Shown here: piece by piece, positions 23,148 to 25,729 of the stretch | Layout: each line of letters starts with the position of its first letter | Numbering within the stretch: position 1 is the stretch's first letter | Source: a virus | Strand: one strand, 5' to 3' | Length of the DNA: 27,147 bases | Virus genome (UHGV): UHGV-1347488 | Notes under the pieces: generated by a model | The model's database searches: none | Told to the model about the DNA's origin: nothing | Seen by the model: the letters and a program-made list of their open reading frames with translations, nothing else | Translations under genes and position numbers: made by a program

Positions 23148-23183
23148 AAGACACCCTGGGTTACGGGGTGTCTTGGTTTTGTT
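23148..23183. terminator. Hairpin between convergent genes (AAGACACCC / loop / GGGTGTCTT, then GGTTTTGTT); likely a bidirectional terminator
   Basis: 9-bp stem followed by a T-rich tract on the plus strand; located between the stops at 23083 (+) and 23189 (-). Confidence 0.5.
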
Positions 23184-23188
23184 ATTGG

Positions 23189-24055
23189 TTATTTCAAATA
23201 CAATGGATGGCTATTATCGTCCGCTTCCTTCTCAAAGTCACCATTGAATTTATATTGACCCTGGTGATCGGGTTTACTATTATAAACTTCATAGCCACCA
23301 TTTTCAAAATCTGTGGATAAATACACATCCAATTTGGGACTTTTAAAAACCTGTCTTTTAGGAGATTGTCCATCTCTCTTTTTAGCTTTTCGCTTATTTA
23401 AAGCGGTAAGTTTAGAATCGTATGTATACTTATTTCGTTCTGCAACTTCCATTCCAATTTTATGAAGGGTTGCTATTTTATCATCAATTGAATTAGAACG
23501 TAATATTTCAGATCTCCATTCGTTATATCCATTACACAATACAGATGCTGGAAACTTATTATTAAATGATGGGACAGAAATTTGTATTAATTCATCTTGT
23601 TGAATCCATCTTTTAATATTTGAATCAACTTCCTGATCAAAATTTCCTATAAAAAATATTTTATCATTCAATTGTTTTTGTTGTAACTCTCTATGCCGTC
23701 TATCTTTAATGTATGGGATTACAACAATATTATCTTCTGATATACTTAGAATATATTTTATTTTTCCAACAAAAGCCTTCGTAAAACCGAGATTATTCAA
23801 AGCAATGTCTTCAGCTTCTGACACAAGACCTGCATCATATTTATCTACCTTATGAGTTTTTAAAATTGAATGATTTACCTCTCTGAACCTGGAAGATCTG
23901 TTATATGACTTTGTGGAAGTTGCAAAAGGTTCAAACATAACTAATTTTGCATTGAAAAAATTTTCAACAACTAATAAAAAATCATTCAAGTATTTTTGCT
24001 GTTCAATGCTTGTTTGATAAAATTTTTCATCGATAAGTATTTTATATGTTGGCAT
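23189..24055 (-). CDS. Unknown-function partner protein of the ABC ATPase (288 aa; candidate effector of a two-gene defence-like module)
   Basis: ATG (MPTYKILIDEKF…) with RBS CAGGAGAG; start lies 1 nt after the ATPase stop codon; basic C-terminal region (KRKAKKRDGQSPKRQ); no HNH-type Cys/His pattern. Confidence 0.7.
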   Translation of the reverse strand: MPTYKILIDEKFYQTSIEQQKYLNDFLLVVENFFNAKLVMFEPFATSTKSYNRSSRFREVNHSILKTHKVDKYDAGLVSEAEDIALNNLGFTKAFVGKIKYILSISEDNIVVIPYIKDRRHRELQQKQLNDKIFFIGNFDQEVDSNIKRWIQQDELIQISVPSFNNKFPASVLCNGYNEWRSEILRSNSIDDKIATLHKIGMEVAERNKYTYDSKLTALNKRKAKKRDGQSPKRQVFKSPKLDVYLSTDFENGGYEVYNSKPDHQGQYKFNGDFEKEADDNSHPLYLK

Positions 24056-24056
24056 A

Positions 24057-25487
24057 TCAACTCTCCTGTTTCTGCAAATTTCTATATCCAACATCTATGA
24101 TTTTAGCTGTTTCATTTGAAAATTGATAAAAGAAATTTTCATTTTCACATAATGCCCCGTCAACTTCATCAATCACTATAGGTGTTATAAAAGACATACC
24201 TAATTCATTCTGATCTACAAAATAGATTTGAATTTTATCACGTACCTCTACATCCTCCATATAGCGTCTAACAATTCTATTTACAAAATGATCACTATGA
24301 GTTTCAATAACAACAGATTTATCATGTGTGGAGAGGGATAATAAAAAATCTGCCATTCGCATTTGCATTTTAGGATGCAGGTGAATTTCTGGCTGTTCCA
24401 AAATCAAGGTTTGATTCGAAGACATAATAATTCCTTCGGCTAAAATTGGCAATGACTGACTAATTCCAAATCCAACATCAACCAAATTATGTTTATTTAT
24501 TCTTACTTTTACTAAATCTTGTTGTCTATTATCAAGGAATAGCGTACCTAATTCTAAATATTGCATCCATGAACCAATTAAATCAATAAATTTATTTGAT
24601 TCACATACTGTCTGTGACGGCACATAATTATCTTCCGATTCAGGAGCCATAACACCTACCACAGTATTTTTTTGTTTATTCTTCAATAACAGAGGGGTAT
24701 CTTCACCGGATACACCAACATCAACAACCTTTTTGTCTGCGATATAACGTCTCATAGGATTTTCTCTCAATGGAGCAATATATTGTAATTGAATATACTG
24801 AGATGGAAGAATACTAAAAATTGAAGTTAAAGTTGGAATAAACAATTTTGTAGAAGGATTCATACGTTCTTCGTAAATACTATTTAAAGTCATATTACGA
24901 AAATAACAGATAGCATTGTTAATATTAAAATCTCCTAAATTCCCAGCAACATCTGGGATTTGTGTTCCGCGAACAGTATATGTCTTTTTCCCATTTCTGC
25001 ACAATTCAATTCGTGAATTGATTGAGCCAGTTTTTAATTCTACTTCAATATTAACATCAATGGCATGTAATTTATTTGCATATAAAGAAGCGCCACTATT
25101 ATCAATAGAAACACAATAATTGATGATGAATTTTTCGACATCGTTTCTATAATATAATCTATTCAAATCACGAAACTGAACGTTATCTTTTGAAGCGGTT
25201 TCTTTTGAACGTTTAAGTTCAAAAGTATTGCTAATCGTAAAGAAATTTTCTGAATGTTGATCACACAAAATCTCAGAAAATGTTCCATTGTCTATATATT
25301 TACCGTTAAATAACATTTGGTCGGATGTATTAGTATCTTCAAAAGTTTGCTTTAACATCAGCAAGCTTTTTAAAATAGAACTTTTACCGCTGCTATTTAC
25401 ACCGCACAATACGGTCAGTGGCGCAATCTCTATATCGGTCTTATCTTTAAAGCACTTATAATTTTCCAAACTTATAGATTTCAGCAT
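24057..25487 (-). CDS. AAA15/AAA21-type ABC ATPase (OLD/AriA/PtuA/AbiLi-like)
   Basis: N-terminal I.SI.L.NYKCF with Walker A GVNSSGKS; Q-loop-like QYIAPLRE; signature-like GFGISQSLPILAEG; Walker B LILEQPEIHLHP; H-loop ETHSDH. ATG (MLKSISL…) preceded by GGAGGT at 6 nt. Confidence 0.8.
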   Translation of the reverse strand: MLKSISLENYKCFKDKTDIEIAPLTVLCGVNSSGKSSILKSLLMLKQTFEDTNTSDQMLFNGKYIDNGTFSEILCDQHSENFFTISNTFELKRSKETASKDNVQFRDLNRLYYRNDVEKFIINYCVSIDNSGASLYANKLHAIDVNIEVELKTGSINSRIELCRNGKKTYTVRGTQIPDVAGNLGDFNINNAICYFRNMTLNSIYEERMNPSTKLFIPTLTSIFSILPSQYIQLQYIAPLRENPMRRYIADKKVVDVGVSGEDTPLLLKNKQKNTVVGVMAPESEDNYVPSQTVCESNKFIDLIGSWMQYLELGTLFLDNRQQDLVKVRINKHNLVDVGFGISQSLPILAEGIIMSSNQTLILEQPEIHLHPKMQMRMADFLLSLSTHDKSVVIETHSDHFVNRIVRRYMEDVEVRDKIQIYFVDQNELGMSFITPIVIDEVDGALCENENFFYQFSNETAKIIDVGYRNLQKQES

Positions 25488-25729
25488 TCCCATACCTCCA
25501 TAATCTCCTTTCATTTTACCAAAATTTACCAGTTACTACAATGAGAACGTGTGTATATAGATTCGATATTTTAAAATATTTTTTTATGAAAGAAGCTGCC
25601 GGAATATACCAACGGCTCCCGCATTATTCCTTTCCAATCTTCCACTTAGCAAGTTCTTCCCCCAGGACCCAGCTCAATTCTTTGTACTGCTCCGGTGTGA
25701 GGGTCGTGCCGCATTTTTCTTCCACATTC

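Follow-up and report, generated by a model that had tools for sequence, protein, structure and literature searches.

Menshen is a defence system composed of NsnA, NsnB and NsnC (Millman et al. 2022; Li et al. NAR 2025, PMC12065111). In its canonical form the gene of NsnA, which combines ParB-DUF262 with a ParBDB domain, lies immediately upstream of the ABC ATPase gene (NsnB) and in the same operon; NsnB bears a C-terminal DUF3696 helix, and the effector NsnC, encoded next after the ATPase, couples an inactive PIN-like N-terminal domain to a C-terminal toxin or RNase domain. Most C-terminal domains of NsnC have been classed as BECR RNases (PMC12065111). HEC-03, which pairs an ABC ATPase with a PIN-domain protein, is experimentally protective and requires both genes (Payne et al., bioRxiv 10.1101/2024.01.29.577857). 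In PARIS (AriA-AriB) and Septu (PtuA-PtuB) a nuclease effector is bound to an oligomer of the ABC ATPase until phage sensing leads to its release or activation; the effectors are a TOPRIM protein (AriB) and an HNH protein (PtuB), respectively.

Here we analyse a two-gene cassette found in a 27,147-nt stretch of viral DNA (UHGV virus genome UHGV-1347488), referred to below as the window. A first-pass annotation made from the DNA letters had proposed this pair as a candidate novel module. Sequence and profile comparisons instead place it as a relative of Menshen and HEC-03, and not as a wholly new system, because the C-terminal module of its effector matches NsnC and folds like the rRNase domain of colicin E3. 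Our preferred reading, to which we assign a probability of roughly 0.6, is that the cassette is a two-gene module of the Menshen/HEC-03 kind that lacks NsnA and serves defence or superinfection exclusion, its ATPase first restraining an RNase toxin and later releasing it.

A tightly coupled gene pair

The cassette consists of two open reading frames on the minus strand, an ATPase gene (24057-25487, 476 aa) followed by a partner gene (23189-24055, 288 aa). Read from its first ATG, the ATPase frame spans 24057..25514 and encodes 485 aa. The likely start is Met10, at position 25487, since a GGAGG (at about 25499-25495) precedes it by 7 nt, the metagenome gene calls choose the same start (P0035), and homolog alignments begin there (alignment A2). 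The partner (MPTYKIL...) starts at 24055, its ATG lying 1 nt past the TGA of the ATPase gene. This junction (24052..24067, minus strand) can be read directly from the sequence as GGAGAG-TTGA-T-ATG, so that the separate ribosome binding site noted for the partner in the first-pass annotation is indeed present, and it is located inside the 3' end of the ATPase gene. An alternative in-frame ATG upstream, at 24094, would extend the partner to 301 aa, and homologs do not use it. Homologous loci show similarly tight junctions, with a 1-nt gap, a 4-nt overlap, or overlaps of up to 11-17 nt.

Downstream of the partner, a probable bidirectional terminator (23148..23174) separates the cassette from a convergent HTH gene. 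This GC-rich hairpin has an 11-bp stem and T-runs on both strands, and is the strongest of 7 sites reported by a terminator scan of the region, where 1.1 were expected. Upstream of the ATPase gene (25488..25541, minus strand) a putative promoter was read by eye, consisting of a weak -35 element TTGTAG (25541-25536), a 17-nt spacer and an extended -10 element TGG-TAAAAT (25518-25513). A consensus promoter scan of this AT-rich DNA gave no hits above background; the candidate is unlisted there because its -35 element matches the consensus at only 3/6 positions. No tRNA genes were found in the window. The GC content of the cassette is 0.306, compared with 0.397 for the remainder of the window, in agreement with its earlier description as AT-rich cargo in a mobile element; the element is a phage.

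The two genes are not a chance pair of reading frames. The partner has homologs in 34 clusters, the ATPase gene lies directly 5' of the partner in every examined locus that has sequence upstream of the partner, and both proteins yield confident AlphaFold models.

An ABC ATPase of the DUF3696-type defence superfamily

The identity of the first gene product (24057..25487, minus strand) was established from Pfam, PADLOC, motif, AlphaFold and Foldseek results. Its translation contains all the motifs from which a complete AAA15/AAA21-type set had been proposed (CGVNSSGKS, QYIAPLRE, GFGISQSLPILAEG, LILEQPEIHLHP and ETHSDH), and Pfam matches AAA_15 (3.4e-27) and AAA_21 (3.8e-13) bear this out. The Walker A motif is GVNSSGKS and the H-loop is ETHSDH, with three deviations elsewhere: an Arg (APLR) replaces the Gln of the Q-loop, GFG replaces SGG in the signature motif, and Walker B reads LILEQPE (D to E, E to Q), which is invariant within the clade. 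The superfamily motifs GxNxSGKS, APLR, GFG, E[QN]PE.HLHP and ETHS are invariant in alignment A2. Menshen NsnB has the same layout of an AAA_15 ABC ATPase with a helical tail, and shows the same deviations, with Arg at the position of the Q-loop Gln, GxG where SGG is expected, and D-E replaced in Walker B. With HEC-03 the cassette shares the Walker B signature EQPEIHLH and a DUF3696-type tail.

The AlphaFold model of the ATPase (pLDDT 90.4, pTM 0.90) includes a long terminal helix (residues 457-475). The protein also has Insert-1, a large, variable, beta-rich region (residues about 81-205), whose majority fraction in the conservation profile is 0.44, against 0.77-0.81 for the catalytic core. 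The nearest folds found by Foldseek are the retron-Eco8 effector, PtuA, GajA, OLD, Rad50 and SMC. The solved Septu ATPase PtuA, like GajA, is thus among the closest structures, although the ATPases of PARIS and Septu are only distantly related to that of the cassette (TM 0.35-0.43).

Among PADLOC models the ATPase matches NsnB best (219 bits, full-length, 4.3e-65), followed by HEC-03B (150 bits), PDC-M55A (126) and AriA (111 bits, 2.9e-32). We rejected the top match to NsnB as proof of Menshen membership: a true HEC-03 ATPase reaches 241 bits on the same model, which is therefore generic. Conversely, the 150 bits of the cassette ATPase on the HEC-03B model compare with 686 bits for a true HEC-03 member. 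In a tree of the superfamily the cassette ATPase forms a clade of its own, at about 24-28% identity to Menshen NsnB, the HEC-03 ATPase and PDC-M55A; on these sequence grounds we classify it as a separate clade of the DUF3696-type defence ABC ATPases. HEC-03 loci are among the distant relatives of this ATPase. It differs from canonical NsnB (24% identity) in having EQPE where the latter has ENPE, and the large insert makes it about 50-100 aa longer. Pfam DUF3696 was not detected in a Pfam search of the window ATPase, unlike in the tails of some relatives (L049 at 1.3e-9; L012 and L014 at about 1e-3), and all relatives found on plasmids are annotated as DUF3696 proteins. The homologs of the ATPase number roughly 3,700; within 50,697 phage records it gave only weak matches, restricted to its C-terminal half, to genes of P2-like hotspots.

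The effector carries an NsnC-type toxin module

The 288-aa partner (23189..24055, minus strand) has an NsnC-type architecture and a confident AlphaFold model (pLDDT 92.1). It is composed of a Rossmann/PIN-like alpha/beta N-terminal domain (about 1-155), a helical linker (about 171-223) and a colicin-E3-like C-terminal RNase module (about 225-288), with R234, S247, D249, G253, E256, H264 and H283 conserved. Pfam, NCBIfam and PHROGs searches with this protein returned no match, neither did tblastn of the partner nor megablast of the region against the 50,697 phage records, and an IMG/VR scan with the partner profile found no relatives. The C-terminal ~130 residues match the PADLOC NsnC models (1e-9). 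The C-terminal module is also homologous to the NsnC C-terminus of two canonical GmrSD_N-ATPase(DUF3696)-NsnC loci (L154 and L156). The partner, which had been described as unclassifiable and possibly a new effector family, can therefore be assigned, while the earlier remark that it has no HNH or TOPRIM features was correct. The cassette effector is of neither the PtuB nor the AriB kind, there is no DUF4435/TOPRIM partner as in PARIS, and the suggested likeness to AriB/AbiLii-type effectors is an analogy only.

The C-terminal module is a good fold match to the rRNase domain of colicin E3. For three family members the best Pfam match, below threshold, is Cytotoxic (PF09000; 15-18 bits against a cut-off of 22); the window effector itself has no match to this family. 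A PDB sequence search with the C-terminal domain found no match, and its hhalign comparison with the ColE3 fragment was not significant (P = 0.025; 6/200 shuffles scored equally), so that the ColE3 assignment rests on the fold and on the sub-threshold Pfam matches. Equivalents of ColE3 D510 and E517 are conserved, whereas the position of His513 is Asn in the window effector and His or Ser in relatives. Unlike colicin E3 and CdiA-CT(ECL), the cassette effector is an intracellular protein with an ATPase as its partner, has no translocation or receptor domains, and has no separate immunity gene of the Im3 type beside it.

The N-terminal domain is only generically Rossmann-like, NaMNAT, USP and PIN folds scoring about equally, and its assignment as PIN, based on the structural model, is tentative. 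Homology with the PIN domain of HEC-03 was rejected at the sequence level (hhalign probability 0.6%), and the partner has no match to the PADLOC HEC-03A model. HEC-03 has as its effector a VapC-like PIN protein of about 160 aa with a single domain, in contrast to the two domains of the cassette effector with its added ColE3-like RNase module; both systems have two genes, no NsnA, and an ATPase gene placed first and tightly coupled to its effector. In L012, L014 and many other representatives the N-terminal domain is exchanged and the C-terminal module retained. NsnC has been described as showing such a polymorphic-effector pattern (PMC12065111), and, as in Menshen, the ATPase is followed by an effector of about 300 aa, tightly coupled to it and ending in the RNase-type toxin module.

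An RNase with a bacteriocin-type toxin fold, tightly coupled to an ATPase gene and lacking a separate immunity gene, could also belong to an addiction or toxin-antitoxin-like system. The ATPase would then serve mainly as antitoxin, and the pair would stabilise the prophage or act in competition between elements, with no phage sensing. HEC-03 is toxic on induction (bioRxiv 10.1101/2024.01.29.577857), and the plasmid relatives of the ATPase are located among toxin-antitoxin and Abi genes (AbiG, AbiE and Hok), both of which fit such a role. However, the closest functional precedents, Menshen and HEC-03, lower phage plaquing (PMC12065111; bioRxiv 10.1101/2024.01.29.577857), an ABC ATPase of 476 aa that carries a hypervariable insert far exceeds the needs of an antitoxin, and the replacement of the cassette in a phage backbone that is otherwise identical (see below) fits arms-race cargo. 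We therefore consider addiction as the main function quite unlikely, noting that addiction and defence roles are not mutually exclusive.

The cassette behaves as exchangeable phage cargo

The cassette occupies a low-GC hotspot in a phage that is probably a temperate, SPbeta-like phage of gut Firmicutes. Phage carriage sets it apart from Menshen, whose survey (PMC12065111) makes no mention of it. The sister phage L004 encodes flanking proteins 95-100% identical to those of the window phage, but its ATPase and partner are only 63% and 62% identical, respectively; exchange of the cassette alone, with the backbone unchanged, is in line with arms-race cargo. The convergent HTH gene (370/372 aa) was rejected as a third component, because it is absent from all other contexts and the sister phage has unrelated genes in its place. 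Likewise, no conserved upstream gene accompanies the pair: among 57 upstream ORFs of genome relatives there is no recurrent family, and the genes upstream of the window ATPase are small ORFs that have no family match.

The neighbours in the window lineage look regulatory or early (sigma factors, a tubulin-like gene and a cold-shock-domain gene). For a phage-encoded pair, such surroundings could point to a function in the lytic cycle, namely host shut-off or counter-defence, for example by degradation of host RNA during phage replication, with no protection of the lysogen. Several observations make this very improbable. The cassette ends in a terminator of its own and, with its low GC, resembles a moron in composition; other phages carry the pair beside a divergent CI-type repressor or an integrase, the usual site of lysogenic-conversion genes; members of this clade are also found in bacterial chromosomes, beside SIR2 or nSTAND genes; and variation of the cassette between sister phages implies that it is dispensable for the backbone.

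No adjacent NsnA gene

The main departure from Menshen is that no ParB/DUF262 (NsnA) gene adjoins the pair in any of 11 close contexts or 80 genome loci. In the latter, which are bacterial and harbour more distant relatives, no DUF262 ORF was found within +/-7 kb. Among the close phage contexts, DUF262 genes were absent within 8-10 kb in six (L001, L091, L092, L143, L147 and L148) and present in the other five, including that of the window phage, upstream and on the same strand, 0.8-8.5 kb away (L004/L009, 5.4-5.6 kb; L008, 4.4 kb; L093, 8.5 kb; L095, 2.9 kb; L145, 0.8 kb). In the window phage 5.6 kb and at least 14 genes separate the pair from the nearest DUF262 gene (L009:3283-4380), which is flanked by sigma-factor genes; in L145 the sole gene between the DUF262 ORF and the pair is the divergent CI-type repressor.

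Given the DUF262 genes in 5/11 of these contexts, the pair could be the NsnB-NsnC part of a split Menshen, whose sensor would act in trans from another site in the phage genome. The effector module common to the cassette and canonical Menshen would fit this, as would the matches of the phage DUF262 proteins to the PADLOC NsnA model (7.7e-35, nearly full length, in L008; 1.8e-17 in the window phage). Where the lysogeny repressor gene alone intervenes, such an arrangement would tie the system to the lysogeny module; that a DUF262 gene just across the CI repressor gene represents a Menshen wired to the lysogeny switch is speculation on our part.

The distribution and relationships of these genes nevertheless argue against a split system, which we judge unlikely. 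The DUF262 gene is never adjacent to the pair nor co-oriented with it in one operon, and L091 has none, even though L095, with an ATPase 86% identical to that of L091, does. The two do not co-vary, since between sister phages the DUF262 gene is 98.6% conserved as against 62-63% identity for the cassette. Because several of the phages have a common backbone, their co-occurrences do not count as independent. Against canonical NsnA the phage DUF262 proteins reach only 20-55 bits, largely from the DUF262 domain, compared with 141 bits between canonical NsnA proteins, and they belong to a stand-alone phage family (phrog_2598). The ATPase clade, as shown above, is also distinct from canonical NsnB.

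Discussion

The anti-phage or abortive-infection role that had been suggested for this pair is, in our view, also the best supported by the comparisons presented here. Under our preferred reading, the cassette would be self-contained accessory cargo that protects the lysogen through superinfection exclusion or abortive infection. The ABC ATPase may oligomerise, as in PARIS and Septu, and its C-terminal, helical, DUF3696-like tail may grip the Rossmann/PIN-like N-terminal domain of the effector, whose C-terminal RNase would stay silent while held. Replacement of the Walker B D-E by E-Q suggests a slow, ATP-bound switch and not a motor. The hypervariable, beta-rich Insert-1 is a candidate surface for sensing a cue from an invading phage; sensing would alter the nucleotide or oligomer state of the ATPase, and the effector would thereby be freed or activated. 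Its colicin-E3-like domain is predicted to cut RNA of the translation apparatus, our specific guess being 16S rRNA at the decoding centre, and such cleavage would halt translation and hence phage production. Since most NsnC C-terminal domains are of the BECR type, the target could alternatively be mRNA or tRNA.

It is possible, if doubtful, that this clade is a distinct, unnamed family, a "sensor-less Menshen", in which the ATPase, in place of a ParB/DUF262 protein, detects infection through Insert-1 and releases a ColE3-type, ribosome-cleaving RNase inside the cell, so that a bacteriocin toxin would have been put to new use as an abortive-infection effector, and whose cassettes temperate gut phages trade at a hotspot beside the lysogeny repressor.

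These findings indicate that an autonomous cassette of two genes, with no ParB/DUF262 sensor, unites the Menshen effector module with a related ATPase. This form was out of reach of the published Menshen survey, because its search was anchored on NsnA. For the effector, cleavage of 16S rRNA in the manner of ColE3 is a testable prediction, and the natural allele swap between sister phages is usable for mapping specificity. The cassette also adds a putative type of defence cargo to apparently SPbeta-like phages of human-gut Firmicutes, and joins Menshen and HEC-03 in a single evolutionary series, in which DUF3696-ATPase systems carry exchangeable effectors. Finally, it bears on how NsnA signals to NsnB, a question left open in the Menshen paper: should the pair prove protective by itself, NsnA would be an accessory specificity module rather than an obligatory trigger.

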